NCBI GenBank assembly: GCA_035536375.1
Contig: DATLOH010000053.1
Span: forward strand, 1-59,909
Source: Acidimicrobiales bacterium
Lineage (GTDB): Bacteria; Actinomycetota; Acidimicrobiia; Acidimicrobiales; JACCXE01
Length of the DNA: 59,909 bases
Direction of reading: 5' to 3'
Positions 5,811-49,536 of this stretch are shown here, piece after piece (the first letter of the stretch is position 1; each line of letters begins with the position of its first letter). The position numbers and the translations under genes were made by a program. The notes under the pieces were generated by a model. The model made no database searches. It saw only the letters and a program-made list of their open reading frames with translations, and was not told where the DNA came from.

Positions 5811-6727
5811 TTCGCGGTCTGCTCCAGAATTGCGAGTGTGCGCGCCGCGATGCTCTGTTGATAATCCTCGCGCCCGGTGAAAACCGCGCCGCCAAGATGC
5901 TCGAGGCCAACATGCAACTCGTAGCAGCGAAGGCGGCGATCGAAGTCTGGCTCGTCGAGTCCGATCGTCTCGTAGTGAGTCCTTACCGCGGCGCCGATGT
6001 CGAGGGCGGCGAGTGCGGGGTACCACGGCGAGAAAAACGTGAGTAGAGCGAGCTCGTAGAGCTGGTCACCGACAATTGAGCATCCCCAGTCGAAGACCGC
6101 TTCGATCCTCTCGCCGTCGTGGGTGACGAGCACGTTGCGGTTGAGAAGGTCGCGATGCAGAACGCAGCGTGCTTCGGGCACGCAGTCGAGCAGCGACCGC
6201 ATCTCGCGCTCACCGCGTGCGAACAGATCCGCAAACGCAGACGACTGGATGGACGCGCGCCATCCGTGCATGCGGTTCCCCGGCTGATCGGCTAGCGAGC
6301 CCAGAAGCCAGCCACGCCAAGTCCACTCGTCGCTCGCCTCGCCAGGATCGACCGCGCGCAGAGCGTCGAGAGCGCGACACAGCGCCGGCAAGACACGCTG
6401 CCATCCGGCATGGTCGAGCGTTTCGAGGAACACGCCGAAGTGTCGTTCGGAGATGCAGTAGAACGCGCCGAGTGCTTCGCCGATCTCGAGCACCGCCGGG
6501 ACCGGGAGGTCGGGGCCGGCATAGGAAGTTGCTTGTTCGTCCGACTCGACGTCGTAGCGGTGCTGCCCGAAGCGCGCGACGAGATCGCGTCCATCGAGCC
6601 TGAACGCAAACGCCCGCGACCACGCCCCGGCACCGAGCTCGGCAACACCTTTGACACCCGAGCCATACCGCTCGTTCAGGAATCGGGCTGCCGCGGCGAC
6701 ATCGACCGGGCCTTCGACTGTTTCCAC
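5807..6727 (-). CDS. aminoglycoside/choline-kinase-type phosphotransferase (APH family)
   Basis: 306-aa ORF. Catalytic-loop motif HRDLLNRNVLV and the downstream VFDWG motif. GTG start lies 1 nt after the upstream stop. Confidence 0.75.
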   Translation of the reverse strand: METVEGPVDVAAAARFLNERYGSGVKGVAELGAGAWSRAFAFRLDGRDLVARFGQHRYDVESDEQATSYAGPDLPVPAVLEIGEALGAFYCISERHFGVFLETLDHAGWQRVLPALCRALDALRAVDPGEASDEWTWRGWLLGSLADQPGNRMHGWRASIQSSAFADLFARGEREMRSLLDCVPEARCVLHRDLLNRNVLVTHDGERIEAVFDWGCSIVGDQLYELALLTFFSPWYPALAALDIGAAVRTHYETIGLDEPDFDRRLRCYELHVGLEHLGGAVFTGREDYQQSIAARTLAILEQTAN

Positions 6728-6728
6728 G

Positions 6729-7263
6729 TCAGTCCGTTCTCACCCCGCCGCCGCCCGGCGTCGGTGTGAGCCGGAAGAGCCGGATCTGTCGGGGGCCAGC
6801 GGTGCGTTCGTACACCGAGTAGCCGCGGTTACCAGTCGACGGCGCGATCCCAGGCGCGGCGACGCTCGTCACCATCCAGCTCGTTGGCGTCGTAGTCGCG
6901 AGTCGTTCCGCGGAACGTGACGGTGCAGTGGGAATTCGCGCTGAGGTTGTAGACCCAGCTCGGATGATGCGCCCGCCCGTAGTTCGACCCGATGAGCAGC
7001 AGCGTGTCGTCATTCTCAGGGATGCACACCAGCGGCTGTGGGCGCGGAAGTCCACTCTTCGCCCCCGTGGTGGTGACCATGCCGACGAGGTCCTTGCCCG
7101 CGGAGCTCCACCGCCCTTCGGTTCGCGGGATCACGACGCGGTCGATCACCGGTGCGACGTGGAGCAGATACTGATAACCAACCCGTGACATCGCCGCCCG
7201 CTCCGCGAGATCCTCTAACCGCGTGATCTGCCGTCCCCGTGACTCGCTGTATCTGGGACTCAT
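6729..7263 (-). pseudogene. deazaflavin (F420)-dependent nitroreductase family (DDN/DUF385-like) gene with an apparent 1-nt frameshift near 6829-6834
   Basis: ORF 6829-7263 ends ...RRRAWDRAVDW*. The family-typical C-terminus (NRGYSVYERTAGPRQIRLFRLTP) continues in the adjacent frame to a TGA at 6729-6731. Confidence 0.6.
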
Positions 7264-7336
7264 CAGATCAACGTAGCTACAGGTCCAACACGATGGCGGG
7301 AAGCGGGCATGCTCACACCGGTCTGGAGGAGGCGCC

Positions 7337-8137
7337 GTGACCGATGATCTGCTCGATGTGCCGGGCGTCGACGAGCTCTACGAGCTGATGCCCTCAGAGT
7401 TCGTGGCGGCACGCGATGCGCTCGCGAAACGCGTCCGTAGCGAGGGCGATCGGGATGCCGCCGCAGCGATCAAGAGGCTGACGAAGCCGACCGTCGTCGC
7501 CCACGCGATCAACCAGGTCGCCCGGCGAGACCGCGACGGGATCGACCGCCTGCTCGCGGCGAGCGCCGAAGTGCGCGACGCGCAGGCGAAAGCGGTGCGG
7601 GGTGAGGACGCAGCTGCGCTGCGGAAAGCCTCGCGTGTGCGCCGAGAGATCGTGCAGCGACTCGCCGATGCAGCTGCGACGATCGCCGGGGCGACGAACC
7701 GGGATGAGGCCGCGACCACGTTTGAGGCAGCGAGCCTCGACGACGAAGCGGCCGTCAGCTTGCGAGCCGGTCGTCTTACGCGGACGCTCGCGCCGAGCTC
7801 GGGATTCGGTCTGGAAGGGATGCCCGAACCCACGCCGAGGCTGGCGCGTGATGATGCCTATGAGCCGGCATTGAATACCGCGCACGGCCCGGTACCAGCG
7901 CAACGCGACGACCAAGCGGTTGAGCGCGCCGAGCAGGCGTTGGGGTCTGCGAACGCCGCTCTCGAGAAGGCCGAAGCGGCCCTGGAGCGCGCCGTCGACC
8001 GGCGTCGCGGCGCGCAGGAGCGTCTCGAAGCCGCCGTCGACGCGCACCAGCGGGCCCTCCACGATCGAGACGCAGCTGCGGCAAAGCGGGATCAGGCTGC
8101 GGACGACGTGCGCGTCGCCCGCGGCGACTCAGCGTGA
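7337..8137 (+). CDS. hypothetical Ala/Arg/Asp-rich, probably helical protein
   Basis: 266-aa ORF with a GTG start preceded by GGAGGAGG. No recognisable catalytic motif. 3' end overlaps the convergent kinase gene by 9 nt. Confidence 0.5.
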   Translation: MTDDLLDVPGVDELYELMPSEFVAARDALAKRVRSEGDRDAAAAIKRLTKPTVVAHAINQVARRDRDGIDRLLAASAEVRDAQAKAVRGEDAAALRKASRVRREIVQRLADAAATIAGATNRDEAATTFEAASLDDEAAVSLRAGRLTRTLAPSSGFGLEGMPEPTPRLARDDAYEPALNTAHGPVPAQRDDQAVERAEQALGSANAALEKAEAALERAVDRRRGAQERLEAAVDAHQRALHDRDAAAAKRDQAADDVRVARGDSA

Positions 8138-10003
8138 CGCCGACCCGTTTGACGCTGCGAGCTTGTTCTCTGCGAAGGGTTTAAGCGTGAACGCGAAGGT
8201 CGTTCCTCCGCCGGGCGCGCTCTCGAAGTAGATCGTGCCGCCTTGGGCCTCGACGAACCGTTTCGTCAGCGCCAGCCCGAGGCCTGTCGACGCCTGGCCA
8301 CGCTGCGGGTCGTTCCCCTTTACCCGGTAGAAGGGCTCGAAGATGCGATCGCGCGCCTCCTCGGGAATTCCGATGCCGTGGTCACGCACCCGTACGACGA
8401 CCTCGCCATCTTCCGCCGCCGCCGACAGCTCGACCTTGCCTCCCGGTGGCGTGTACTTCACGGCGTTGTCGACGAGGTTCAAGACGATTTCGCGCAGTCG
8501 CCGCGCATCGGCCGACACCGTCGGCACGTCGCGGGCCACGTTGATCGACACTTTCAGCGCACCCGCCTGTGCCAGCCCTTCGATCGTGCGACGGAGATCC
8601 TTGACGACGTCCTTGAGCCGGACCTCGTCGAGGTCGACGTCGAGACGGCCGGCTTCGGCTTTCGAGAGTTCCAGCAAGTCGTTGATAAGTGAGAGGAGTT
8701 GCTCGCTCGAAGCCAGGATCGTCTTGGCGACCTCCTCCGGCGGCTGGTCGGCGAACTTCGGGTTGAGCATCATCATCGTCTGGCTGCGGATGACCGCCAG
8801 CGGCGTGCGGAGGTCGTGGCTCACGGCCGCAAAGAACTCCGTGCGCTCCTTGAGTAGTCGGTGGACCTCCTCGGTGCGTTGAGCGACGCGCAATTCGAGC
8901 GTCTCGTACAGCGCTTGGAGCTGATCGGCCATCTGGTTGACGCCGCGCGCGACCTCGCCGAGCTCGTCGTTGCTCACGACCGGAGCGCGCGCCGACAGAT
9001 CGCCATGACCGAGCGCGCGGTTGGTGGCGACGAGCGGTCGCAGCTGAGCGAGGATCGACCGCGACAGCAGCGCGCCGATACCGATCACTCCGAGCATCAC
9101 GAGGAGGGTGATCAATCCGAGGCGCTGTGCCGTGCTGCGCACCGATGCGTTGACGGTGTCGGCGGGCACGGTGGCCGCGAGGGTACCGACCCGTTCACCC
9201 TGAACCTCGAGCGGCCCGTACAGAGTGGCGACCTCGAGGTCGCCACTCCTTCCGAGCCGGCGGACCAACCGTCCATCGCCCGGCGCTGCGGGCGCGGTCG
9301 TGTCCGAAGCGAGGCCGGAACGAGCGAGCAACCGACCGTCGGCACCATAGATTGCAGCTCCGGCGCGGCTTCGGTCGCCGAGCCCGCTGTTGCCCGCCGC
9401 TTCGGCTGTGAGGCGGTCGATCGACAGACCGACGATCGCGACTCCACGCGCGCCGTCGTCACACCTCGCTGGATTCGGGCAGATAGGAGCGGCGATCGCG
9501 AGGAGGTGCTGGTCTGCCTCGTTCACGAAACCGGCGCGCCGAGCACCGCCAACGTCGCCAAGGGCGGTTTTGACGAACTCGTGCGTGTTCCAGCGACCGC
9601 CGTGGCGCGCCTCGGTCTGGCTCTTCGAGCTCACCCTCCGGAGCTCTGCGATTGCCACGCCCGCGGCATCGGTTGCGACGAGGAGTGTCACGTCGGTCTT
9701 CAGCGCGAGCACTGACCCGAGGAGTGTTTCGACGGCGCGCCGGTCTCGCCTCGCGATCGCGTCGCCCATTCCCTGGATGTTCGTCGCAAAGTTGGCGGAC
9801 TCGACCAGGTAAAGCTCGCGGTCGTGGGCCATCGACCGCGCCTCAAACGAGCGGCGAGCAAGGTCGCGGTCAAGTGCCTCCTGCGCGCTGACCGAGAGAT
9901 CGCGCACGATGAAGTAGGCCCCAAGCGACCCGAAGATCACGATCAGCGCGAGGAAGGGGAGCAGCAGCTTCCAGAACAGCGGTAGGTCGCGAACCCGACG
10001 CAC
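8129..10003 (-). CDS. sensor histidine kinase (two TM segments, large extracytoplasmic domain, HAMP, HisKA, HATPase_c)
   Basis: 624-aa ORF with H-box FFAAVSHDLRTPL, N-box LVDNAVKYT and G-boxes DHGIGIP / GLGLAL. GTG start lies 4 nt after the upstream stop, with AGGAGA overlapping that stop. Confidence 0.9.
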   Translation of the reverse strand: MRRVRDLPLFWKLLLPFLALIVIFGSLGAYFIVRDLSVSAQEALDRDLARRSFEARSMAHDRELYLVESANFATNIQGMGDAIARRDRRAVETLLGSVLALKTDVTLLVATDAAGVAIAELRRVSSKSQTEARHGGRWNTHEFVKTALGDVGGARRAGFVNEADQHLLAIAAPICPNPARCDDGARGVAIVGLSIDRLTAEAAGNSGLGDRSRAGAAIYGADGRLLARSGLASDTTAPAAPGDGRLVRRLGRSGDLEVATLYGPLEVQGERVGTLAATVPADTVNASVRSTAQRLGLITLLVMLGVIGIGALLSRSILAQLRPLVATNRALGHGDLSARAPVVSNDELGEVARGVNQMADQLQALYETLELRVAQRTEEVHRLLKERTEFFAAVSHDLRTPLAVIRSQTMMMLNPKFADQPPEEVAKTILASSEQLLSLINDLLELSKAEAGRLDVDLDEVRLKDVVKDLRRTIEGLAQAGALKVSINVARDVPTVSADARRLREIVLNLVDNAVKYTPPGGKVELSAAAEDGEVVVRVRDHGIGIPEEARDRIFEPFYRVKGNDPQRGQASTGLGLALTKRFVEAQGGTIYFESAPGGGTTFAFTLKPFAENKLAASNGSASR

Positions 10004-30378: not shown

Positions 30379-30470
30379 GTGAGGTCGGGTCATCGTAGTA
30401 GTGCGGGTCGCGGGAGCCGACATGACCAGGGATGCTCAGGACGCGGCGCCAACGGCCGATGAATGGGGTG

Positions 30471-32840
30471 ATGACACGCGCCCGTACCCGTCGTGGTCTG
30501 CTGGCGGCCGTCCTGCTCGGCGCGGCTGTTGGGGGATGGATTGCTGGCGCGCGTCCGGCCAGCGCGGCGATCACGTCGGCAACTCCGTCGCCGACTTCGG
30601 TTCTTGCGGCGCCCGACTACGCCACTGCTACCTACGGTGACGCGTGGGACTACGCGAACGCCGAGGACTTCGACAGCGCGCTTAAAAGCTGGATGGTCGG
30701 CGCCAGCAACGTGACGTCGCAGAACGGAATGCTCTCGTTCGACATGACGCGGATGGGCCAGTTGCCGCTGGTGCGCGGCTTCGGCGATATCACCATCCCG
30801 TGGGGCCGCGATGCCAGCCTCAACCCGATCCCGGCGGCGACGTACACGCGATTGTCCTTCCGCATGAACGCGCAGATCAGCCAGCCGACGTCTGGTCAGG
30901 TTGTATGGATGAACTGCGGCAACTTCGTGCACGAGTGCCACGGCGGCCAACCGATCACCATTAACCCCGGCTGGCACACCTACGACATCGCACTCGCCAA
31001 CCAGTACAACGACCTACCCGCGGCGTGGGCGGGTCAGATTCACTCACTCGTCATCGTGCCCGTTGGCGCCAACCTCGCCTCCGGTCACATCGATCTCGAC
31101 TGGGCGCGTCTGTATCAAGCCGGCGCGCCGGTAGCGGTCGACCTCGCCGACTCCAACCCCGGCGGGCGTGTGACCGCTTCGTGGTCGGCCGCGCCCGGCG
31201 CCGACTACGCCGCGACCGCGAATCGCGCCGCGGTGTTCGCTTCGACGACGTCGTCGTCGACCACGAGAGTCAACTTCAACGCCCCCGCGTACCCGCCCGG
31301 CACGTACAGGTTCTACGGGACCGACACCGATGGAACCTCGTCGGCTCCCGGCCCGCCACTGACCATCGGCGCCCGCGTCAACACCTCGAAGCTGTTGCCT
31401 GAGGTGCCCAGCGGGGCCGACTACGCGTCGACCGTCCGCGGCGACGCGTGGGATTTCGCTCAGACGTCCGACGTCAAGTCGTCACTCAACGCTGCGCTGT
31501 CCTTCGACGGCCAGCTCCTGCACGGGCGCAACGCGGCGCCCTACCAGAACGACCCGTGGGTCGAGCTGCCGGTGGCGCCGCCCATCGACGGAAGCCGGTT
31601 CCACCGCCTCAGCATGCGGGTGCACTTCGACGGCGACTTCCGGCTCACCGACGACGCAGGGGGAGGCATGAACGCCCGCGTCTACTGGGGCACGACCAAT
31701 TCCGCCGAGGACCAGGTGAGCCAGGACATTCTCGTTTACCCCGGCTGGCAGACGATCACGTTCGACATGTCAGCACCCCAGCTCCACGACGAGGGTCAGC
31801 CGGGCACAACCCGGCAAGGTTGGGTCGGGCGCCAGATCAAGTGGTTCCGCATCGACCCCAATGAGGACCGCGGTGAGCGGACGTGGGCGATCGACTGGGT
31901 GCGACTCGGGGGTACGAGCCCGTTCGGCTCCTTCGACGCGGCGCAGCGCGTTGCTGGCGGCATCGCTGTCGGTGGGTGGGCGATCGACGCCGACACTGTG
32001 AACCCTATCCCGGTGCACGTTTACGTCGGCTCGAGCGCGCACGGCGTGCTCGCGAGCGACCGCCGGCCGGACGTGGCCGCGGTCTATCCGGCGTATGGAC
32101 AGGAGCACGGCTTCAATACGGTGGTACCCGCAGCGCCCGGTCGCCACCGCGTATGCGTTTACGGCATCAACCAAGGAGCGGGGGCCAACAGTGCCCTCGG
32201 CTGTCGTGACGTAACGGTCGACTCGCAACCGTTCGGTTCTTTCGACCGTGCGGCGCGGGTCGCGGGAGGGATCTCTGTCGGCGGTTGGGCGATCGACGCC
32301 GACACCGCAGCGTCGACCACCGTGCACGTCTACGTCGATCATGTGGGGCACGCCATCGACGCATCTGGCTTCCGTCCCGACGTCGGCGCCGCCTTCCCCT
32401 CATACGGCTTGGCACACGGCTTCGATGCGGTTGTCCCGGCGGCGCCGGGTGAGCACAACGTGTGTACGTACGCCATCAACGTCAGTTACGGATCGCATGT
32501 CGGGCTCGCGTGCCGAACAGTGACCGTCGACCCGATGCCGTTCGGCTCGCTCGACATCGTTTCGCGGACAAGCGACGGCATCCGAGTTGCGGGCTGGGCG
32601 ATCGATCCCGACACCGCCGCTCCAATCCCGGTGCACGTCTACGTCGACACCGCCGGGCACAACCTCGGCGACGCCGCGCTACCACGAGCGGATGTTGCCG
32701 CGGCGTTCCCGTCCTACGGAACAAATCACGGGTACGACACGGTCGTTCCCGCAGGCGCCGGACCGCGAACCGTGTGCGCGTACGGCATCAACCAGGGTGC
32801 GGGGGGCAACGTGAAGATCGGCTGTCGCCGCATCGAGTGA
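30471..32840 (+). CDS. large secreted repeat protein: two ~210-aa N-terminal modules plus three tandem 103-aa C-terminal modules
   Basis: Signal MTRARTRRGLLAAVLLGAAVGGWIAGARPASA. Repeated DYA(T/S)...GDAWD(Y/F)A modules. Three 309-bp in-frame repeats at 31920-32837. Start could be ATG 30459 or 30471. Confidence 0.7.
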   Translation: MTRARTRRGLLAAVLLGAAVGGWIAGARPASAAITSATPSPTSVLAAPDYATATYGDAWDYANAEDFDSALKSWMVGASNVTSQNGMLSFDMTRMGQLPLVRGFGDITIPWGRDASLNPIPAATYTRLSFRMNAQISQPTSGQVVWMNCGNFVHECHGGQPITINPGWHTYDIALANQYNDLPAAWAGQIHSLVIVPVGANLASGHIDLDWARLYQAGAPVAVDLADSNPGGRVTASWSAAPGADYAATANRAAVFASTTSSSTTRVNFNAPAYPPGTYRFYGTDTDGTSSAPGPPLTIGARVNTSKLLPEVPSGADYASTVRGDAWDFAQTSDVKSSLNAALSFDGQLLHGRNAAPYQNDPWVELPVAPPIDGSRFHRLSMRVHFDGDFRLTDDAGGGMNARVYWGTTNSAEDQVSQDILVYPGWQTITFDMSAPQLHDEGQPGTTRQGWVGRQIKWFRIDPNEDRGERTWAIDWVRLGGTSPFGSFDAAQRVAGGIAVGGWAIDADTVNPIPVHVYVGSSAHGVLASDRRPDVAAVYPAYGQEHGFNTVVPAAPGRHRVCVYGINQGAGANSALGCRDVTVDSQPFGSFDRAARVAGGISVGGWAIDADTAASTTVHVYVDHVGHAIDASGFRPDVGAAFPSYGLAHGFDAVVPAAPGEHNVCTYAINVSYGSHVGLACRTVTVDPMPFGSLDIVSRTSDGIRVAGWAIDPDTAAPIPVHVYVDTAGHNLGDAALPRADVAAAFPSYGTNHGYDTVVPAGAGPRTVCAYGINQGAGGNVKIGCRRIE

Positions 32841-32884: not shown

Positions 32885-34399
32885 ATGGGAACTCTCTCGG
32901 AACGCAACCCGTCGCTATGGGTAGGCACGACCGACCCGGCGCCCTATGCGCCACTCGACGGCGACACCTCGGCTGACGTGGTCGTGATCGGTGCAGGCAT
33001 CGCCGGGCTCACCACTGCGAGGCTCCTCGCTGCCGAAGGAAGACGGGTCGCGGTGGTCGACGCCGGATCGGTCTGCGCCGGGGCAACGGGATACACCACC
33101 GCCAAAGTGACCTCACTGCACACGTTGATCTACGCGCAGCTCGAGAAGTCTTTCGACGCTGACACTGCAGCGATCTACGGGGCCGCCAACGAGGCGGCAA
33201 TCCATCGGATCGTGGAGCTGACGGCTAACGACGAGATCGACTGCGAGCTCGAACAGGCGGCGGCGTACACGTACACGCTCCAGGCGGAAAACCTTCCGGA
33301 CATAGAGGCGGAGGTGAACGCCGCGACGCGTGCCGGTCTCAGCGCGGCGTTCACGACAGAGACCGATCTGCCGTACGACGTGCTCGGCGCAGTCCGCGTC
33401 GACGGGCAGTACCAGTTCCACCCGCGCAAGTACTGCCTTGGTCTCGCACAGGCGATCGTGCGCGACGGAGGCTCGGTGCACGACCACACCCGTGCGCTGG
33501 AAGTCGACGAGGACACCCACACGGTGACTACCGATCGCGGCACCATCAGCGCGGGTGACGTGGTAATTGCTTCGCACCAGCCGTTTCCCTTGCACGGCGG
33601 GTACTTCGCACGCGCCGAGCCGTGGCGTTCCTACGTCCTCGCGCTCTCCGTCGATGGGCCCCGGCCGGAAGGGATGTACATCAGCTGCGACGAGCAGACC
33701 CGCTCGGTACGGTCGACTGCGGCTGGACATGTGCTCGTTGGTGGCGAGGGGCACAAGGTCGGTCACGACGACGACACCGAGGCCAACTACGCGCGCCTCG
33801 AGTCATGGGCGCGCGAGACGTTTCCGGTGACGTCCGTCGAGTATCGGTGGTCGGCGCAGGACTACAAGACTCCCGACGGCCTGCCTTACATCGGTCGCAT
33901 GACCCCAGGGTCAGACCATGTCTACGTGGCGACGGGATTTCGGAAGTGGGGGATGACGAACGGCACGGTGGCAGCGATGATCCTCGCCGACACCATCGCC
34001 GGACGCGAGAACCCGTGGTCATCGACATTCGATTCCCACCGGTCCTCGATAGCGCAAAGCATCAAGGGTCTGATCAGCGAGAACCTCGACGTCGCCAAAC
34101 GCTTTATCGGTGACCGCATCGCGTCGCTGCACCCAGCGTCGATTGACGACCTGTCGACCGGTCAGGGCGCCATCGTCGACCTCGACGGCGAGAAGGTGGC
34201 CGCGTTCCGCGACGACAACGGCACTGTGCACGCAGTCTCGGCCAACTGCACACACATGGGGTGCCGCGTGAACTTCAACCCGGCTGAGCGCAGTTGGGAC
34301 TGCCCGTGCCACGGCTCGCGCTTCGGCATCGACGGCAGCGTGCTCGAAGGCCCCGCAACCAAGGACCTCGCCCCCGCAACACCCGTCCGCCGCATGTGA
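32885..34399 (+). CDS. FAD-dependent oxidoreductase fused to a C-terminal Rieske [2Fe-2S] domain
   Basis: ATG 32885. Dinucleotide fold VVVIGAGIAGLTTA. Rieske motifs CTHMGC...CPCHGS. The track ORF start at 32462 lies inside the previous gene. Confidence 0.85.
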   Translation: MGTLSERNPSLWVGTTDPAPYAPLDGDTSADVVVIGAGIAGLTTARLLAAEGRRVAVVDAGSVCAGATGYTTAKVTSLHTLIYAQLEKSFDADTAAIYGAANEAAIHRIVELTANDEIDCELEQAAAYTYTLQAENLPDIEAEVNAATRAGLSAAFTTETDLPYDVLGAVRVDGQYQFHPRKYCLGLAQAIVRDGGSVHDHTRALEVDEDTHTVTTDRGTISAGDVVIASHQPFPLHGGYFARAEPWRSYVLALSVDGPRPEGMYISCDEQTRSVRSTAAGHVLVGGEGHKVGHDDDTEANYARLESWARETFPVTSVEYRWSAQDYKTPDGLPYIGRMTPGSDHVYVATGFRKWGMTNGTVAAMILADTIAGRENPWSSTFDSHRSSIAQSIKGLISENLDVAKRFIGDRIASLHPASIDDLSTGQGAIVDLDGEKVAAFRDDNGTVHAVSANCTHMGCRVNFNPAERSWDCPCHGSRFGIDGSVLEGPATKDLAPATPVRRM

Positions 34400-34418
34400 C
34401 GTCGTGACCCTTCCTTTG

Positions 34419-34438
34419 ATGTTAGGTGCACCTAACAT
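34419..34438. promoter_or_regulatory. perfect 20-nt palindrome ATGTTAGGTGCACCTAACAT, putative operator 12 nt upstream of the ATG
   Basis: Read directly from the sequence. A near-identical copy lies at 38128-38149. Contains the TAACAT -10-like hexamer. Confidence 0.6.
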
Positions 34439-34450
34439 TAGGATCGCTCG

Positions 34451-35497
34451 ATGCTCACAAGACGTGCTGCCATCCTCGTCGCCGCCGTCCTTTCGGCGAC
34501 GTTGGTCGGCTGCGGAGACGACAACAACGACACGGACGCGTCCCAGCGTGCGAAAGCGAAGACCGGAAGCCTGACGGTGTACTCCGGGCGCAACGAGAAC
34601 CTTATCCGGCCGTTGCTCGACAAATTCGAGAAGGACACCCGCATCGAGGTCGATGTGAAGTACGGCGACACGGCTGAGCTGCTCCCGACGGTTATCGAAG
34701 AGGGCGAGCGCTCGCCCGCCGACGTCTTCATCTCCCAGGACGCCGGATCGCTCGGTGAACTCGCCGAAAAGGGACTGCTTGCACCGCTCCCACTCGACGT
34801 CATAAACGACGTTGACGAGCGCTTCCGCGACGATCAGCGCCGTTGGGTCGGACTCTCCGGGCGCGCCCGCGTCGTGGTCGTCAACACCGATCGCGTTCCC
34901 GCGGCCGAGCGACCTTCGAAAATCGACGACGTACTCGCCCCGAAGTGGAAGGGCCGCATCGGGTTCGCCCCCACCAACGCGAGTTTCGTTGCGTTCGTGT
35001 CAGCGTTGCGCAACCAACGCGGCGAGCCTGCCGCTCGCAAGTTCCTCGAGGGTCTAAAGGCCAACGGAGCGCGCGCCTTCGACAGCAACCTCCTCGTCGT
35101 GCAGGCGGTGGCGCGCGGCGAGGTAGACCTTGGACTGGTCAACCACTACTACCTGTACTCGGTGAAGAAGGAAACTCCGAACGCCCCAATTGAGAACGTC
35201 TTCACCGATCAGGACGCGGCTGACCAAGGGATGTTCGTGAACGTCGCAGGTGTGGGCGTGCTGCGCACCGCAAAGCACGTTCCGGAGGCGACCCGCTTGG
35301 TGCGTTACCTGCTTTCGGAGTCGGCCCAAACGTATTTCCGCGACAAGACCAGCGAGTATCCGCTGGCTGCCGGCGTCACCGCCATTGCGGAGCTACCGCC
35401 GTTGAACTCGTTGCGGACGCCTCCTGTTCCCCTGGGTCGCCTCGGCGGCGGTCTCGACGCGAGCGTGACCTTGATCAAGGACCTCGGCCTGTCCTGA
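34451..35497 (+). CDS. Fe(III)-type ABC transporter substrate-binding lipoprotein (FbpA/AfuA-like)
   Basis: 348-aa ORF with lipobox LVGC. LTVYSGRNENLIRPLLDKFEKDTRIEV... is typical of ferric-binding SBPs. AGGA lies upstream. Confidence 0.85.
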   Translation: MLTRRAAILVAAVLSATLVGCGDDNNDTDASQRAKAKTGSLTVYSGRNENLIRPLLDKFEKDTRIEVDVKYGDTAELLPTVIEEGERSPADVFISQDAGSLGELAEKGLLAPLPLDVINDVDERFRDDQRRWVGLSGRARVVVVNTDRVPAAERPSKIDDVLAPKWKGRIGFAPTNASFVAFVSALRNQRGEPAARKFLEGLKANGARAFDSNLLVVQAVARGEVDLGLVNHYYLYSVKKETPNAPIENVFTDQDAADQGMFVNVAGVGVLRTAKHVPEATRLVRYLLSESAQTYFRDKTSEYPLAAGVTAIAELPPLNSLRTPPVPLGRLGGGLDASVTLIKDLGLS

Positions 35498-35619
35498 CCG
35501 AGCCGCACCCGTCCGACGCGCCACCGCTCGTCGCCACGTCCACACCGCGCCGATCGTTCGCGTCGAGCCGGCACGCACCGGCCGCGGTCTGGGTTCCCGC
35601 ATGTCTCGTCGGGCTCGCC

Positions 35620-37098
35620 ATGGTCGTGCCCCTCGGGTACCTGCTGTTGCGCAGCACCGAAGCGAGCGATCCTCTGGCGCTGCTGACGAGTGACCGCGTG
35701 CTCCGTTTCCTGTCGACGACCCTGCGCCTCGCAGGGGTTGTCACCGTCGTGTCGGTCGCATTGGGAGGAACGCTGGCGTGGCTCCTCGAGCGGACCGACC
35801 TGCCCGGTCGGCGGGTGCTCGCAGTGGTGGCCGTGCTGCCTCTCGTCGTACCGACCTACGTGCTCGCACTTGCGCTTGTGAGCGCTGTTGGTCCTGGCGG
35901 GCTCGTCGCGTCGTGGTCGTGGGTGCGCGGGTTCTGGGGGGCGACCGTGGCGCTTGTAGCGGCCACCATGCCAACGGTCGTGCTTCTCGGCCGAGCTGAA
36001 CTGGCCGGTACAGACGGTTCCTTTGACGATGCCGCCCGCGCACTCGGGGACAGCGCACTGACACGCTGGCGTCGTCTCGTGATTCCTCAGCTTCGGCCTG
36101 CACTCGGGGCCGGGGGCCTGCTCTGTTTCCTTTATGTGCTGTCGGACTTTGGGGCGGTCTCGATCCTTGGAGTCGACACGCTGAACCGGGGGATCTACTT
36201 CGAGTACCGGTCGCTGAGTTCGGACCGGTCGAGCGCCGCGGTTCTCGGCGTCCTGCTCGTCGCGCTCAGCATCGCCGTGATCGCCGTGGAGCGAGCGGTG
36301 CGCCGCCGCGGGGCGGCGCAGGCGATTCCGAGTGCGCCGGTGCCGTATCCAGTGACGCACCTAGGTCGGTGGCGCTGGCCGGCCGCGGCCGCAGTGGCGC
36401 TGGTGGGGCTTGCGGCCGCGGGTGGGCCCGTCGCAGTCCTGATCGTGTGGGCCTACCGGGGCACCAGCGGCCCGGATGCGATCGCAGAGTTGATTGACGC
36501 CGGCCGCACGTCGCTGTCGTGGTCGGCGGCCGCAGCGCTCCTTGCGGTAGCCGCCGCATTGCCGGTCGCGATCCTGGCGGTGCGATTCCGGTCGCGCGCC
36601 GCGCGCGTCATCGAAACCGCGGCTGTCGCCGGGTTCGCACTCCCGGGGCTCGTCGTGGCGCTCGCACTCGTCTTTATGACACTGCGGGTGGCGCCAGTCG
36701 TGTATCAAACAGGGCTTGTCGTGGTCGCCGCCTACGTCGTGCGTTTCCTGCCCGAAGCTCTGGGTGCCGTACGACCGGCAGTCGCGGCGGTCGATCCGGC
36801 GGTCGAGGACGCAGCGCGCGCGCTTGGCCGCGGTCGAGCTGCGGTGCTCGCCACTGTGACGCTGCCGCTCGTTCGAGGCGGCGCGCTTGCCGGCGGGTCG
36901 CTGGTGTTCCTCACTGCGATGAAGGAGCTACCGGCAACGTTGCTCCTCCAGCCGCCGGGTTCGGACACGCTCGCTGTGCGCGTGTGGACTGCGGCATCCG
37001 AGGGGTTCTATGCGCGCGCCGCGCTGCCCGCGCTCGCACTCGTCGTGCTGTCTGCCGCGCTGCTCGCGCCCCTACGGTTCGGAGGGCCGCGCCGATGA
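35620..37098 (+). CDS. iron ABC transporter permease (duplicated FbpB-type). True start possibly upstream at a non-canonical codon.
   Basis: 492-aa ORF with two permease halves (two EAA-type loops: DAARALGDS and EDAARALGRG). 122 nt upstream are open in-frame and encode the rest of TM1. Confidence 0.85.
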   Translation: MVVPLGYLLLRSTEASDPLALLTSDRVLRFLSTTLRLAGVVTVVSVALGGTLAWLLERTDLPGRRVLAVVAVLPLVVPTYVLALALVSAVGPGGLVASWSWVRGFWGATVALVAATMPTVVLLGRAELAGTDGSFDDAARALGDSALTRWRRLVIPQLRPALGAGGLLCFLYVLSDFGAVSILGVDTLNRGIYFEYRSLSSDRSSAAVLGVLLVALSIAVIAVERAVRRRGAAQAIPSAPVPYPVTHLGRWRWPAAAAVALVGLAAAGGPVAVLIVWAYRGTSGPDAIAELIDAGRTSLSWSAAAALLAVAAALPVAILAVRFRSRAARVIETAAVAGFALPGLVVALALVFMTLRVAPVVYQTGLVVVAAYVVRFLPEALGAVRPAVAAVDPAVEDAARALGRGRAAVLATVTLPLVRGGALAGGSLVFLTAMKELPATLLLQPPGSDTLAVRVWTAASEGFYARAALPALALVVLSAALLAPLRFGGPRR

Positions 37099-38111
37099 GC
37101 GTCGAGTTGCGAGGGGTCAGTCGGAGCTTCGGCGAGATAACGGCGGTGCGCGACGTTTCCCTCACCGTGCCGACCGGGTCGATCGTCGCGCTGCTCGGGC
37201 CGAGCGGATGCGGCAAGACGACAACTCTCCGCGTCGTCGCCGGCTTCGAAACGCCGGACGCGGGCACCGTGACGGTCGGCGGCCGCATCGTCGCCGGGCC
37301 GGGCGCGTGGGTCCCACCCGAACGCCGTCGCGTCGGCATGGTCTTCCAGCAGCTAGCGCTGTTCCCGCACATGAACGTCGGAGGCAACGTCGGCTACGGG
37401 CTGCGAGGGATGAGCCGGGCCGCCCGAGCCGACCGAGTCAAAGCGATGCTCGAACTCGTCGACCTGGCCGGTTATGAGCGGCGTCGCCCCGAACAGCTCT
37501 CAGGCGGCGAGGCGCAGCGTGTCGCCGTTGCGCGCGCGCTCGCCCCGGCGCCGGACGTCGTGCTGCTGGACGAGCCATTCTCGAGCCTTGATGTCGGTCT
37601 GCGCGTCGATGTGCGCGAACAGGTGGTGCGAATCCTGCGCGAGGCGGGTGCCACCGCGATTCTCGTGACGCACGACCAGGACGAGGCACTGTCGCTGGGC
37701 GACGAGGTGGTGGTGATGCTCGGCGGAGCAGTCGCGCAGGCCGGCGCTCCCGAGAGTGTCTACCGCCAACCCGCCTCGGCGGCAGTCGCCGAGTTCCTCG
37801 GCGATGCCAACTTGCTGGACGGCGAGGTCACTGGCGGACGCCTCGCCAGCGTGGTCGGGCCGCTCACGGTCGACGCGCGCGACGGACACGCCACGGCGCT
37901 GGTGCGGCCGGAGGATCTGGATCTCATCGAGGATGACGACGGGACCGCCGAGGTGAGAGAGGTCCAATACTTCGGGCACGATCAGCTGGTGACCCTGTCG
38001 GTGGGCGGGGCCACCGTGCGGGCCCGCCTCCACGCGCAGCGCCGGTTCTCGCTCGGCGCCCGCGTGCGCATCGTCGTCAGAGACGACCGGGCGGTCGCGT
38101 TCTCGCAATGA
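37095..38111 (+). CDS. ABC transporter ATP-binding protein (FbpC/PotA-like with C-terminal TOBE-type domain)
   Basis: ATG 37095 overlaps the permease stop (ATGA). Walker A GPSGCGKTT, signature LSGGEAQR, Walker B VVLLDEPFS. Confidence 0.9.
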   Translation: MSVELRGVSRSFGEITAVRDVSLTVPTGSIVALLGPSGCGKTTTLRVVAGFETPDAGTVTVGGRIVAGPGAWVPPERRRVGMVFQQLALFPHMNVGGNVGYGLRGMSRAARADRVKAMLELVDLAGYERRRPEQLSGGEAQRVAVARALAPAPDVVLLDEPFSSLDVGLRVDVREQVVRILREAGATAILVTHDQDEALSLGDEVVVMLGGAVAQAGAPESVYRQPASAAVAEFLGDANLLDGEVTGGRLASVVGPLTVDARDGHATALVRPEDLDLIEDDDGTAEVREVQYFGHDQLVTLSVGGATVRARLHAQRRFSLGARVRIVVRDDRAVAFSQ

Positions 38112-38127
38112 CCTCCGCGTTGCGCTG

Positions 38128-38149
38128 AATGTTAGGTGCGCCTAACATT
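38128..38149. promoter_or_regulatory. 22-nt palindrome AATGTTAGGTGCGCCTAACATT, second copy of the putative operator, core ends 11 nt upstream of the ATG
   Basis: Identical to the 34419 site except for one central base (GCAC to GCGC). Confidence 0.6.
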
Positions 38150-38159
38150 TGGTGAGCGC

Positions 38160-40664
38160 ATGTCGATCACCTCACTTCCGTCCACGCGCGTTCCGCTCGG
38201 CCCTCTCTTTGCCGCTGACCTGGCGCGCCATGGAGAGCGCGTCGCTCTCAGGACCACAGACGAGGCGATCACCTATGCCGCGCTCGACGGGCGTGTTCAG
38301 AGCGTCGCTGACCGGCTAGGCGTGGGGCGTCGGCTCGTGATGATCACCGCGACCAACACGATCGACTTCGTCGTCAATTACCTCGGTGCCCTGCGGGGTG
38401 GTCACGTCGTGCTTCTAGCTGCCGGCGACGTCGCGGTCACGGCATCGATTGCGGAGCGCTACGACCCTGACGTCGTGATCGGCCCGGATACGGCGTGGTG
38501 TATCGACGAGCAACGCGCTGCGACCGCGCACGATCCGCATCCCGACTTGGCGTTGCTCGTCTCGACGTCGGGGACGACGGGCTCGGCGAAACTCGTGCGG
38601 CTGTCGTCGGACAACCTTCAGGCCAACGCGGCCGCGATTGCGCAGTACCTCGAACTCACCCCTGACGATCGGGCGATGACGACGTTGCCGCTGCAGTACT
38701 GCTACGGCCTGTCGGTGCTCAACAGCCACATGCTCGCCGGCGCAAGCGTCGTACTGACGGAGCTGTCGGTGGTGGACCGCTGCTTCTGGGATTTGTTCGC
38801 GCAGACAAGCGCAACGAGCTTCGCGGGTGTACCCCATACCTTCGATTTGCTCGAACGGGTGGGCTTCGAGGCGATGTCGTTGCCGACGTTGCGCTACATC
38901 ACCCAGGCGGGTGGCCGCATGCATCCCGACAAGGTGAGGCGATTTGCACAGCTCGCCGAAGGCGGGGGGTGGCAGCTGTTCGTCATGTACGGCCAAACCG
39001 AGGCCACCGCTCGCATCGCCTATCTCCCGCCCGCCCTTGCCGCGTCGCGCCCAGGTGCCATCGGCGTCCCCGTGCCAGGCGGCTCGTTGACGATCGACTC
39101 TCCCGACGGGAGCGGCGTCGGAGAGCTCGTCTACCGCGGACCAAACGTGATGCTCGGCTATGCGGAGCATCAGGCCGATCTTGCGCTCGGCCGCGCAGTC
39201 ACGGAACTTCGCACGGGTGACATCGGGCGCGTCACCCCCGACGGTCTGTTCGAAATCGTCGGCCGGTCGAGTCGGTTCACCAAGCTGTACGGGCTGCGCA
39301 TCGATCTCGACCGCATGGAAGAGATCCTTGCTCGGCGCGGAGTGACGAGCATGTGCACAGCCGAGGACGAGCACAGCGTTGTCGCTGCAGTCACGTCGGC
39401 CGACGCAGCCGCTCTTGCGCAATCAATCGTTCCGGCGGAGATGAAAGTTCCGGCCTCGGCCGTGCGGGTAGTCGTGCTCGACGAGTTGCCCAGATTGGCG
39501 AACGGCAAGCCCGCTTACCTCGAGGTTCGGCGCCTCGCTGCCGAGCAGGCTGGTCACTGCGCGTCGAGGGAAGGCCCGCCGACCGTGAGCGGCGCCTTCG
39601 CCGAAGTTCTCGGGGTGACGCCGGGAGACGGTGATTCGTTTGTCAGTCTCGGCGGCGACTCGCTGTCGTATGTCGAGATGTCACTTCGCCTCGAAGCATC
39701 CGTTGGCGACCTGCCGCGCAACTGGCACTTGATGCCCGTGCGCGACCTCGTTGCGCGCGCGCCTGCCGCTCGTCATCGGTGGTTCGCCCGAACTGACTCC
39801 AGCGTCGTGCTGCGCGCCGTCGCCATCGTTCTGGTCGTCGGGACACACGCGAGGCTTTGGCACCTCCCGGGCGGGGCGCACACGTTGCTCGTCGTCGCCG
39901 GATACAACTTCGCCCGCTTCCAACTCGCGGCCCCCAGCATGGTCGCGAGCATCGCCCGCGTCGCAGTGCCGAGCATGTGCTGGATCGCAGTGGTCGCCGC
40001 TTTAAGTGGCAAGTACGGCTGGGAACACGCGTTGCTGATCAACGGTCATATCGGAGCGCCCGAGTCGCGCTCGGGCTATTGGTTCATCGAGGCGCTGGTG
40101 CAAATCCTTGTCCCCCTAGCGCTGTTGCTGAGCGTGCCGAGAGTGCGACGCGCGGAGCGCCGGCGGCCGTGGTTGTTTGCGTGCGCGGTGCTCGGGCTTG
40201 CGTTGGCCATTCGATTCGACCTGCTTCTCAATGGCGACGGCGCGGCCAACATCGCGCGCCCGCACGAAGTGCTCTGGCTCTTCGCTCTTGGTTGGGCGGC
40301 AAGCTGCGTGACCGGCACTCGCCCGGTGATTGCACGACTGGCGCTTTCTGCGGTCGGTTGGTTCGCCCTGTCGGGGTTTTTCAACAGCCCGTCGCGCGGC
40401 CTCATCGTCTTTGCCGGCTTACTCCTGGTTCTCTGGGTCCCGTCGCTGCCGGTACCGCGTGCTGCAACTCGCCTCGTGGGCGCAGTCGCGGCGGCCTCGC
40501 TGTACATCTACCTCAGTCACTGGCAACTGTTTCCGGTGCTCGAACGCGTTCAAGGGTCGGCGCTCGCCGTGGTCGGATCGGTCGTCGCAGGTATCGCGTT
40601 GTGGAGCGTGGCCCGGCGCCTCATTGCTCTGGCCGAAGCGCGCCTCGTCCCTCGCGCGCCGTAG
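38160..40664 (+). CDS. tri-domain protein: ANL adenylation domain, phosphopantetheine carrier (PCP) domain, acyltransferase-3-like integral membrane domain
   Basis: Adenylation motifs STSGTTGSAK, YGQTE, GDIGR, GRSSRFTKLYGLRI and NGKP. Carrier motif LGGDSLS. About 8-10 TM segments with LRAVAIVLVVGTH and SLYIYLSHW. Start placed at ATG 38160. Confidence 0.8.
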   Translation: MSITSLPSTRVPLGPLFAADLARHGERVALRTTDEAITYAALDGRVQSVADRLGVGRRLVMITATNTIDFVVNYLGALRGGHVVLLAAGDVAVTASIAERYDPDVVIGPDTAWCIDEQRAATAHDPHPDLALLVSTSGTTGSAKLVRLSSDNLQANAAAIAQYLELTPDDRAMTTLPLQYCYGLSVLNSHMLAGASVVLTELSVVDRCFWDLFAQTSATSFAGVPHTFDLLERVGFEAMSLPTLRYITQAGGRMHPDKVRRFAQLAEGGGWQLFVMYGQTEATARIAYLPPALAASRPGAIGVPVPGGSLTIDSPDGSGVGELVYRGPNVMLGYAEHQADLALGRAVTELRTGDIGRVTPDGLFEIVGRSSRFTKLYGLRIDLDRMEEILARRGVTSMCTAEDEHSVVAAVTSADAAALAQSIVPAEMKVPASAVRVVVLDELPRLANGKPAYLEVRRLAAEQAGHCASREGPPTVSGAFAEVLGVTPGDGDSFVSLGGDSLSYVEMSLRLEASVGDLPRNWHLMPVRDLVARAPAARHRWFARTDSSVVLRAVAIVLVVGTHARLWHLPGGAHTLLVVAGYNFARFQLAAPSMVASIARVAVPSMCWIAVVAALSGKYGWEHALLINGHIGAPESRSGYWFIEALVQILVPLALLLSVPRVRRAERRRPWLFACAVLGLALAIRFDLLLNGDGAANIARPHEVLWLFALGWAASCVTGTRPVIARLALSAVGWFALSGFFNSPSRGLIVFAGLLLVLWVPSLPVPRAATRLVGAVAAASLYIYLSHWQLFPVLERVQGSALAVVGSVVAGIALWSVARRLIALAEARLVPRAP

Positions 40665-40669
40665 CGACG

Positions 40670-41191
40670 CTACAAGCCGGTCACGCCGTCGATCTGCTCC
40701 CGCAGGATGTCGGCGTGGCCGTTGTGCCTTGCGGTCTCCTCGAGCATGTGCACCATGATCCAGCGCAGCGTCGGCCGGAACGGCGCTCCAGGCACGCGCC
40801 GGTTCACCACGTTGCCACGACCGGTGTCGCCGAGTTCGGCGGTGCCCACCACAACGCGCGAGCGCTCGCATGTGTCGAGGTAGACGTCGACGACGTCACC
40901 ACTTGTCTCGCCGGTCCGCGATACGAAGTCCTCCGCGCTGTTGGGCCTGGGCAGTACCGCCGCTGCTCCACCGAACACCTCGCCGAACCAGTAGTGCTCG
41001 GCGAACGCGAGGTGCTTCACGAGACCGAGCAGGCTCGTGCCCGACGCCACCATCGGTCGCCACGCGTCGTGCTCGGCGAGACCATCGACCTTCCGCAGGA
41101 TCGTGGCGCGGTGAAAGTCGAGCCAGCCGCAGAGCATCTCCTTCTCGGCCGCGTCGATCGACGGCTCGGTGCGTTCGAAGGGCGCGGGCAC
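40670..41191 (-). CDS. DinB/DUF664 family protein (mycothiol-transferase-like four-helix bundle)
   Basis: 173-aa ORF. LDFHRATILRKVDGL...LVKHLAFAEHYWF...HNGHADILRE is the typical DinB_2/DUF664 pattern. Confidence 0.75.
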   Translation of the reverse strand: MPAPFERTEPSIDAAEKEMLCGWLDFHRATILRKVDGLAEHDAWRPMVASGTSLLGLVKHLAFAEHYWFGEVFGGAAAVLPRPNSAEDFVSRTGETSGDVVDVYLDTCERSRVVVGTAELGDTGRGNVVNRRVPGAPFRPTLRWIMVHMLEETARHNGHADILREQIDGVTGL

Positions 41192-49302: not shown

Positions 49303-49536
49303 CTAGAGGTGCTCGGATGCGGCGGCCTGAACCGCAGCCACGATGTCCTCCCACGGGGCATCGCCAGAGCGCGTCACGGTGACGAAGTCGTTGACCCCGA
49401 ACAGCGACGAAACGCCGGGCACACCTAGGACAGCCTGACCGAAAGCGCTCTGCTCGACGTCGTCGGGGACAGGCGCATCGAGGGAAAAGCGCAATGCGTT
49501 CGGGTTCGGCGTCGAGGACGGTGTCGCGGTAGCCAT
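49303..49536 (-). CDS. Nfu/NifU N-terminal-domain-like small protein
   Basis: 77-aa ORF. NPNALRFSLD...GVSSLFGVNDFVTVTR resembles the Nfu_N scaffold domain. Confidence 0.6.
   Translation of the reverse strand: MATATPSSTPNPNALRFSLDAPVPDDVEQSAFGQAVLGVPGVSSLFGVNDFVTVTRSGDAPWEDIVAAVQAAASEHL

Follow-up and report, generated by a model that had tools for sequence, protein, structure and literature searches.

A predicted iron-controlled fusion of adenylation, carrier and acyltransferase-3 domains in Actinomycetota, encoded beside an FbpABC-type ferric-iron importer

Two described systems that deliver acyl groups to the outside of the cell come closest to the protein considered here. In the DltABCD pathway, an enzyme of the ANL superfamily loads a phosphopantetheinyl carrier with D-alanine, after which a polytopic membrane acyltransferase, the MBOAT protein DltB, passes the acyl group outside, with DltD and DltX also required. 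In the acyltransferase-3 (AT3) O-acyltransferases, among them OafA/OafB, OatA, Oac, WecH, OpgC, SucT and TmaT, a ten-helix transmembrane (TM) core of the Acyl_transf_3 type transfers acyl groups across the membrane; its first helix, TM1, bears an R-X10-H motif whose His is placed at the outer face. Their donor is taken to be acyl-coenzyme A (acyl-CoA) rather than an acyl carrier protein (ACP), and the architectures described so far are AT3 alone, AT3-SGNH and AT3-racemase (VanT), the extra domains being C-terminal and extracytoplasmic (PMC9558356). Here we analyze a gene, in a 59,909-nucleotide stretch from an Acidimicrobiales bacterium (contig DATLOH010000053.1 of assembly GCA_035536375.1; hereafter the window), whose single product joins an ANL adenylation domain, a carrier domain and an AT3 membrane domain, and which lies directly downstream of the genes for a ferric-iron importer of the FbpABC type. 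We favor the reading that this three-domain protein is a self-contained, carrier-fed transmembrane acyltransferase that is expressed under iron starvation and serves FbpABC-mediated Fe3+ uptake, and to that whole package we give roughly even chances. Its architectural part and the predicted iron control are well supported; every chemical step, the substrate class, the acceptor and the physiological role are what we infer.

A reading of this DNA made beforehand from its letters alone (the sequence-only reading) had proposed a Dlt-like logic built on an AT3 scaffold within one protein. That description holds as logic only, and the protein is not a member of the Dlt pathway. The Dlt components are separate proteins built around an MBOAT enzyme, whereas here they are fused around an AT3 membrane domain; Dlt acts on D-alanine, but the three-domain protein lacks the Asp that would hold an alpha-amino group; and no connection of Dlt with IdeR or ferric-iron import is known. 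Likewise, clustering of neighboring open reading frames (ORFs) across 80 homologous loci, the best 80 of at least 599 relatives that came from 600 candidate stretches in a scan of one genome per species and the basis of all counts out of 80 below, revealed no conserved Dlt-like neighbors. With respect to the AT3 enzymes, the difference lies in the fusion, which is N-terminal, cytoplasmic and donor-supplying here, whereas the known members use soluble acyl-CoA.

Two further systems would be looser analogies than these. Aas is also a membrane-associated single polypeptide combining an AMP-binding and an acyltransferase domain, and NCBIfam Aas models do match our adenylation part, but its acyltransferase is of the cytoplasmic-facing PlsC type, its ACP acts in trans, and it handles long-chain fatty acids in phospholipid repair. 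The MbtM (FadD33)/MbtL/MbtK system for mycobactin acylation is repressed by IdeR and brings together an adenylating enzyme, a carrier and an acyltransferase for iron acquisition in Actinobacteria; these are, however, separate soluble proteins, the acyltransferase belongs to the GNAT family, and the acceptor is a cytoplasmic siderophore intermediate. By contrast, the operon adjoining our gene is a clear member of the FbpABC/HitABC/SfuABC group, and we know of no described partner enzyme of FbpA that has this three-domain form.

The sequence-only reading held that one 834-residue ORF contains the three domains, and both the ORF and the Pfam matches, each above its curated cut-off, bear this out (Table 1). 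All nine of the motifs that it quoted occur in the translation. The adenylation domain is complete, as claimed, with core motifs A3, A5, A7 and A8 and the A10 Lys all in place, and the phosphopantetheine attachment site of the carrier, Ser501, sits in an invariant GGDSL. An alternative in-frame GTG start at 38136, which would add eight codons, was rejected: we kept the start at 38160 because the GTG falls inside the palindrome at 38130-38147 and because the homologues begin at the ATG position. Among the NCBIfam models, none matched the protein at its own cut-off; the top match below cut-off was TIGR03098, an exosortase-A-associated acyl-CoA ligase, followed by Aas-type, malonyl-CoA, MenE and 2-oxoglutaryl-ACP ligase models.

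The architecture is a property of a family. A protein search found more than 120 full-length relatives with the same architecture and 51 to 71% identity, whose source records name them only as "AMP-binding protein," "acyl-CoA synthetase" or "non-ribosomal peptide synthetase" (NRPS). In an alignment of 32 full-length homologues, 51 to 71% identical, all three Pfam families were matched in every member (32/32), the best E values being 6e-11 for PP-binding and 1e-13 for Acyl_transf_3. Invariant across this alignment are the P-loop around K144, T280/E281, D354, R369, K450 (the A10 Lys), S501, R552 and H563, along with further AT3 residues: NFARF (583-587), R600, N628, W641, FALGW (708-712), R746 and SLYIYL (780-785). 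Neither the carrier Ser nor the adenylation motifs are therefore degenerate. The best 80 relatives are full length and come from Actinomycetota without exception, including Streptomyces, Arthrobacter, Pseudarthrobacter, Mycobacterium, Mycolicibacterium, Rhodococcus, Nocardia, Micromonospora, relatives of Frankia, Amycolatopsis, Agromyces and Acidimicrobiia.

When the AT3 part alone (295 residues) was searched against 1.84 billion representatives, 1,392 clusters were matched, 277 of them at E <= 1e-30. The long matches are proteins of 810 to 1,000 residues in which the AT3 domain starts at about residue 520 to 600; the short ones begin in the middle of the adenylation domain, the carrier or a TM segment and are therefore fragments or truncated gene calls. 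This AT3 clade appears to exist only as a fusion. Four representatives of about 390 to 420 residues (P0123, P0147, P0211 and P0230) have a Met 20 to 40 residues ahead of the GGDS motif, and these could be either true carrier-AT3 two-domain variants with a separate adenylating enzyme or truncated gene calls. The clade seems to have diverged so far that the classical AT3 enzymes are out of range of a search with one sequence, and a sequence search of the PDB with the carrier-AT3 half gave no match at E <= 10. That no member had been characterized, as the sequence-only reading supposed, agrees with our reading of the literature: in full-text searches, which took in the AT3 reviews PMC9558356 and PMC12423673, and in an AT3 modelling study, we found no description of an adenylation- or carrier-fused AT3. 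These searches likewise brought up nothing relevant on an iron-regulated orthologue, and the passages that we read of the Streptomyces coelicolor DmdR1 regulon study (PMC12161575) name neither the three-domain gene nor the FbpA operon.

Structure prediction is consistent with a carrier that feeds its own membrane domain. The full-length AlphaFold2 (AF2) model (mean predicted local distance difference test [pLDDT] score, 82.7) comprises the large and small subdomains of an ANL enzyme, a flexible linker at about residues 455 to 475 and a small helical carrier domain in which Ser501 forms the N terminus of helix 501-515. Only about 10 residues separate the carrier from TM1. A Foldseek search with the N-terminal half retrieved the adenylation-carrier pairs EntE-EntB and PltF-PltL as best matches, plus MenE and MatB, at E values of about 1e-21. 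A model of the carrier-AT3 portion reaches a pLDDT of 86.3 and a predicted TM-score (pTM) of 0.86; at these values the carrier should, at least as modeled, occupy a defined place against the membrane domain. Ten TM helices span residues 547 to 828, in line with the 8 to 10 of the sequence-only reading. Lys and Arg are enriched ahead of TM1, between TM4 and TM5 and at the C terminus; because they concentrate in the predicted cytoplasmic loops, the N-terminal domains should lie inside the cell, a placement that fits the needs of adenylation and phosphopantetheinylation.

One AT3 signature is the R-X10-H motif. R552 and H563 have exactly 10 residues between them, both are invariant, and the outer end of TM1 is where the model places H563. 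A modelling study of OafB describes this motif (R14/H25, in TMH1) as absolutely conserved among AT3 proteins; the Arg is a pore residue in OafB, and the His is found on the periplasmic side, beside the thioester of a membrane-spanning acetyl-CoA (PMC9833829).

The main functional clue is a palindrome that the sequence-only reading had mentioned in passing as being common to the iron-uptake operon and the three-domain gene. The pattern TGTTAGGTGC(A/G)CCTAACA occurs at exactly two sites in the window, one ahead of each (34420-34437 and 38130-38147), against 0.01 expected by chance, so that this observation stands. Palindromes of the TTAGG-N4-CCTAA type are also found upstream of Acidimicrobiia homologues in unrelated gene contexts, and in other actinobacterial orders the same position is taken by canonical 19-bp IdeR/DmdR boxes. 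Scoring as a box any match to the IdeR consensus with at most 5 of 19 mismatches and lying no more than 320 nucleotides upstream, we found one at 49 of the 80 loci (61%) compared with 23 of 3,107 background windows (0.74%), an enrichment of about 80-fold. Most of the "background" boxes in fact precede the binding-protein gene of a linked ATP-binding cassette (ABC) operon. At 16 more loci a box lies at about -3700, heading an operon in the order substrate-binding protein, permease, ATPase and target gene, which brings the total to 65/80.

A metagenome scan for the exact pattern TGTTAGG-N4-CCTAACA pointed in the same direction. Its neighbors were FTR1 iron permeases (8 loci), FbpA-type binding proteins (6), genes for DtxR-family repressors (5), FeoB (3), ZnuA/TroA binding proteins (3) and ZIP transporters (2), and at 3 loci IlvD, divergent from a binding-protein gene. 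Given these metal-uptake and DtxR-family neighbors, we predict that the palindrome belongs to a DtxR-family class of metal operators, mainly for iron, and its position next to repressor genes suggests autoregulation. The same pattern is widespread in contigs of 30 to 77% GC (loci L086-L205, e.g., L147:9818, L117:2839, L189:4897 and L170:6). Taken together, a conserved control of the three-domain family by iron through DtxR/IdeR, as predicted for a gene of iron starvation, is well supported. A scan for sigma-70 promoters over 34300-40800 returned no sites and is uninformative for a high-GC actinobacterium. One further IdeR-like match in the window (49425-49443; 5/19 mismatches), between a short-chain dehydrogenase/reductase gene and a WS/DGAT wax-ester synthase gene, was judged to be probably a chance occurrence.

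The second line of evidence for a role in iron uptake is gene linkage. The binding protein encoded in the window matches PDB entry 7w3w at 8e-70, Thermus FbpA at 3e-55 and the Neisseria and Haemophilus FbpA proteins at 1e-45 to 1e-48, and with its Tyr-Tyr motif it is by sequence a genuine FbpA. The ATPase ATG overlaps the permease stop codon (ATGA, 37095-37098), which suggests translational coupling within an Fe3+ importer operon. Genes of this ABC type adjoin the three-domain gene in 50 of the 80 loci, with the permease cluster (C2) conserved beside the homologues, and they do so in three different orders: the ABC operon followed on the same strand by the three-domain gene (mycobacteria, Lentzea and the window); a divergent pair with two boxes in the common region (Streptomyces, Micromonospora and Protofrankia); and the three-domain gene followed by the ABC operon (Rhodococcus and Parafrankia). 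That the linkage is kept across such rearrangements argues for functional coupling of the three-domain gene with FbpABC. This predicted coupling, together with the predicted iron control, is what the present analysis adds to the sequence-only reading. Where ABC genes are lacking, as in Arthrobacter and others, the three-domain gene stands alone behind its own box. No conserved biosynthetic partner was found at these loci, whose neighbors are unrelated housekeeping genes (a Cys/Met pyridoxal phosphate enzyme, a racemase, CopC, a phosphoribosyl pyrophosphate synthetase and an aldo-keto reductase), and on that ground the enzyme appears to be self-contained.

What the adenylation domain activates can be narrowed to some degree. 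Its best solved relatives are oxalate-CoA ligase (1e-24), malonyl-CoA synthetase, a prolyl-carrier ligase and MenE, with DltA and a salicylate ligase being weaker PDB sequence matches than the dicarboxylate ligases, and oxalate, malonate, o-succinylbenzoate or 2-oxoglutarate are the substrates of those characterized ANL enzymes that are nearest to it. In the A4 region, LPLQYCYGLSV, there is no Asp, the Asp of PltF aligning to C181 or G183, and TIGR01733, the model for alpha-amino-acid adenylation in NRPSs, scores 121.6 bits against a cut-off of 317.4. Since the position equivalent to Asp235 of GrsA has no Asp and this score is so far below the cut-off, an alpha-amino acid is unlikely; of the "carboxylic or amino acid" that the sequence-only reading had allowed, only the first half is retained. 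An aryl acid (dihydroxybenzoate or salicylate) was also set aside, as the hydroxyl-binding positions of DhbE align to Cys and Val, and the salicylate ligase CahJ is a weaker match. The invariant R285 (39012-39014) aligns with a Cys of PltF equivalent to position 331 of the GrsA specificity code. If this Arg lines the pocket, an anionic acid, such as a dicarboxylic one, would fit it, though as an indication this is weak. Because the pocket residues are invariant across the phylum and there are no linked biosynthetic genes, the acid is probably a common metabolite.

The resemblance to oxalate and malonate ligases raises another explanation, namely that the protein exports its acid by group translocation: the acyl-thioester would be hydrolyzed at the outer face of the AT3 domain with water as the acceptor, and the free chelating acid (oxalate, malonate or citrate) would solubilize Fe3+ or act as the synergistic anion of FbpA. 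Such an exporter would account for the iron regulation and the FbpA linkage of the gene as well as for the lack of an extracytoplasmic SGNH domain or other transferase partner, either fused or conserved nearby. We nevertheless consider it quite unlikely, as it would spend ATP to AMP for each molecule exported where an ordinary carboxylate exporter would do, as no AT3 enzyme is known to be a hydrolase, and as the polar residues H563, H574, N628 and R746, all invariant and predicted to face outward, suggest a specific acceptor site.

Under the reading that we favor, namely an acyltransferase, the cytoplasmic ANL domain would adenylate a small common carboxylic acid, not of the alpha-amino type and probably anionic or dicarboxylic. 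The acyl group would pass to the phosphopantetheine arm at Ser501 as a thioester, on a carrier held close to TM1; the acyl-pantetheine arm would then enter the cytoplasmic mouth of the protein's own AT3 pore in the place of acyl-CoA, and H563 would assist transfer to an extracytoplasmic acceptor. This is the activate, tether and pass scheme of the sequence-only reading, and what it demands of the protein is there: the motifs, Ser501, R552/H563, ten TM helices, a predicted cytoplasmic N terminus and a constant fusion; the chemistry itself we infer. An iron-loaded repressor of the DtxR/IdeR family would bind the palindrome at 38130-38147 and its twin at 34420-34437, and the enzyme would work beside the FbpABC-type ferric-iron importer encoded directly upstream, so that the modification would serve iron acquisition.

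As acceptor, the most likely candidate would be a hydroxyl group of some envelope glycan that Actinomycetota have in common, such as peptidoglycan. As the family spans organisms with very different wall polymers, the acceptor should be something that all of these lineages have, and peptidoglycan is the simplest choice. Membrane lipids would qualify on the same ground, and it is conceivable that acylation by the AT3 domain takes place within the membrane or at its inner face, on a lipid or a lipid-linked precursor, low iron then remodeling the membrane rather than the wall; acylation at the cytoplasmic face has in fact been proposed for two AT3 systems, TmaT and PglI (PMC9558356). This alternative we regard as unlikely, for TM1 carries the catalytic His at its outer end both in our model and in OafB, and the tie to a ferric-iron binding lipoprotein would be left without explanation.

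AT3 enzymes can also acylate small glycosylated metabolites, macrolides and chromomycin being examples (PMC9558356), and a secreted siderophore or other small molecule might likewise be acylated during export. The genes found at these loci speak against such metallophore tailoring: siderophore biosynthesis genes are not conserved beside the three-domain gene, which stands alone in many genomes, the family extends over lineages with quite different siderophores, and the conserved partner is an Fe3+ binding protein that works independently of siderophores. Even with the precedent of adenylation, ACP and acyltransferase acting under IdeR in mycobactin acylation, we judge it very unlikely.

If the product is instead a modified envelope glycan, one specific possibility is that a chelating (di)carboxylate is esterified onto peptidoglycan or another envelope polymer under iron starvation, so that the wall would hold a tethered Fe3+ trap of low affinity from which the FbpA lipoprotein takes over the iron. 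We put this forward as a specific proposal, and a doubtful one.

Several observations weigh against the favored reading of an iron-linked, carrier-fed AT3 acyltransferase. Thirty of the 80 loci have no adjoining ABC importer and 15 of the 80 have no detectable box, and since the loci are phylogenetically related, all of these counts overstate the number of independent observations. The window operator, TTAGG-N4-CCTAA, is unlike the 19-bp IdeR/DtxR box in spacing and looks like a distinct class of DtxR-family operator; its assignment rests on half-site similarity, orthologous position and metagenomic neighbors that include transporters of the Zn/Mn type. On the side of the enzyme, the substrate prediction draws on one aligned residue and on homologues that are only 25 to 30% identical. 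The Acyl_transf_3 score is modest, at 36.1 bits against a cut-off of 31. OafB has the highly conserved RXXR motif of AT3 enzymes on the cytoplasmic face of TMH3, among its conserved pore-lining arginines, whereas the 32-homologue alignment shows no RXXR in the three-domain protein, which has only single invariant arginines in its place, R586 where TM2 ends on the cytoplasmic side and R600 where TM3 begins. The AT3 likeness on which the sequence-only reading had staked its proposal is therefore borne out by Pfam, the ten helices and R-X10-H and fails at this motif, a partial loss that would fit a change of donor, as a tethered pantetheine has no CoA nucleotide. Finally, a Foldseek search of the PDB with the carrier-AT3 model found nothing significant (best E, 0.13), with HGSNAT and other TmAT structures not being retrieved, and the same model matched one protein in BFVD, a viral protein of 637 residues (E, 5e-4; TM-score, 0.52 over 328 columns). 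A length of 637 residues is typical of AT3-SGNH proteins.

The loci without a box and those without an importer could mean that the protein carries out an envelope modification unrelated to iron, for instance a Dlt-like change of surface charge, and that the operator and the ABC neighbor are incidental. An enrichment of boxes of this size over background, seen in many genera, in three gene orders and in stand-alone genes, together with metagenomic neighbors of the palindrome that are metal-uptake genes, makes this highly improbable.

Table 1. Features of the window and of the three-domain protein discussed in the text
Feature	Position	Strand	Details
Predicted operator 1	34420..34437		TGTTAGGTGCACCTAACA; perfect palindrome, TTAGG-N4-CCTAA core, 14 nt upstream of ferric-binding-protein gene
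FbpA/HitA/SfuA-type ferric-iron binding lipoprotein	34451..35497	+	LVGC lipobox; HYY Tyr-Tyr iron-ligand motif; Pfam SBP_bac_6/11/1/8
ABC importer permease, FbpB type	35620..37098	+	Duplicated BPD_transp_1 domain
ABC ATPase, FbpC type	37095..38111	+	TOBE_2 domain
Predicted operator 2	38130..38147		TGTTAGGTGCGCCTAACA; 12 nt upstream of three-domain gene ATG
Three-domain adenylation/carrier/AT3 gene	38160..40664	+	834 codons + stop
ANL adenylation domain	38160..39533	+	About residues 1-458; P-loop 135-144, TE 280-281, D354, R369, K450 = 39507-39509
Peptidyl carrier protein-type carrier domain	39573..39764	+	Residues 472-535; Ser501 = 39660-39662, invariant GGDSLSYVE
AT3 (Acyl_transf_3) domain	39792..40649	+	10 TM helices; R552 = 39813-39815, H563 = 39846-39848
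STSGTTGSAK motif	Residues 135-144
YGQTE motif	Residues 277-281
GDIGR motif	Residues 353-357
GRSSRFTKLYGLRI motif	Residues 368-381
NGKP motif	Residues 448-451
LGGDSLS motif	Residues 497-503
LRAVAIVLVVGTH motif	Residues 551-563
GYNFARF motif	Residues 581-587
SLYIYLSHW motif	Residues 780-788
Pfam AMP-binding (PF00501)	Residues 19-334		148.5 bits; cut-off 29.9; E 3e-43
Pfam PP-binding (PF00550)	Residues 476-513		23.4 bits; cut-off 20.8
Pfam Acyl_transf_3 (PF01757)	Residues 550-815		36.1 bits; cut-off 31

Around these features lie several other genes. Directly 3' of the three-domain gene, and convergent with it, is a mycothiol-S-transferase/DinB-family gene (40670-41191, - strand), which is found likewise in the closest relative (L001, 12485-13006, - strand) and is not conserved more widely. 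A gene for a flavin adenine dinucleotide (FAD)-dependent oxidoreductase fused to a Rieske [2Fe-2S] domain (32888-34399, + strand) ends just upstream of operator 1; it is also upstream in L001, with one hydrolase gene between. Before it comes a gene (30432-32840, + strand) for a predicted secreted protein of 802 residues with no Pfam match, whose C-terminal part contains three tandem repeats of about 90 residues (PFGSFD...GGWAIDADT...VHVYVD...AFPSYG...HGF...VP).

Elsewhere in the family, several mycobacterial loci (among L034, L038-L040, L042, L050, L063, L068 and L073) have, oriented divergently to the FbpA operon, a gene for a haemophore (Pfam MHB, Rv0203-like), with the iron box between the two. 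Downstream and on the opposite strand, mycobacterial loci have a CoA-transferase family III gene (11 loci) and a HAD hydrolase gene (7 loci); being convergent and lineage specific, these were rejected as partners and taken as local synteny. A cluster of Streptomyces ORFs (C5) was also rejected, as it has no Pfam match and probably just mirrors the ABC ATPase gene from the antisense strand. In Micromonospora sp. NPDC004540 (L054), the FbpABC operon has a paralogue of the three-domain gene on either side, at about 117-2261 and 5968-8547.

The mechanism proposed here, if true, would mean that a tethered pantetheine arm, and not only soluble acyl-CoA, can supply an AT3 pore. More acyl groups than those of CoA esters would then be open to envelope modification, and the protein would offer a one-protein system in which to study transmembrane acyl transfer without a diffusible donor. 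Genome-mining tools can be expected to flag three-domain genes as orphan NRPS-like loci, and the link to iron would give such loci a testable function. Gram-negative FbpA receives its iron from outer-membrane receptors; actinobacteria have no receptors of this kind, and we know of no route by which Fe3+ is supplied to their FbpA-type proteins. Should the wall-tethered Fe3+ trap prove correct, the protein would be the first AT3 enzyme to take its acyl group from a carrier protein instead of CoA, and it would represent an undescribed, siderophore-independent ferric-iron route in Gram-positive bacteria. In sum, the three-domain family, with Streptomyces, environmental mycobacteria, Rhodococcus and Arthrobacter among the hundreds of species that have it, is a genetically tractable candidate for the missing step of Fe3+ supply.

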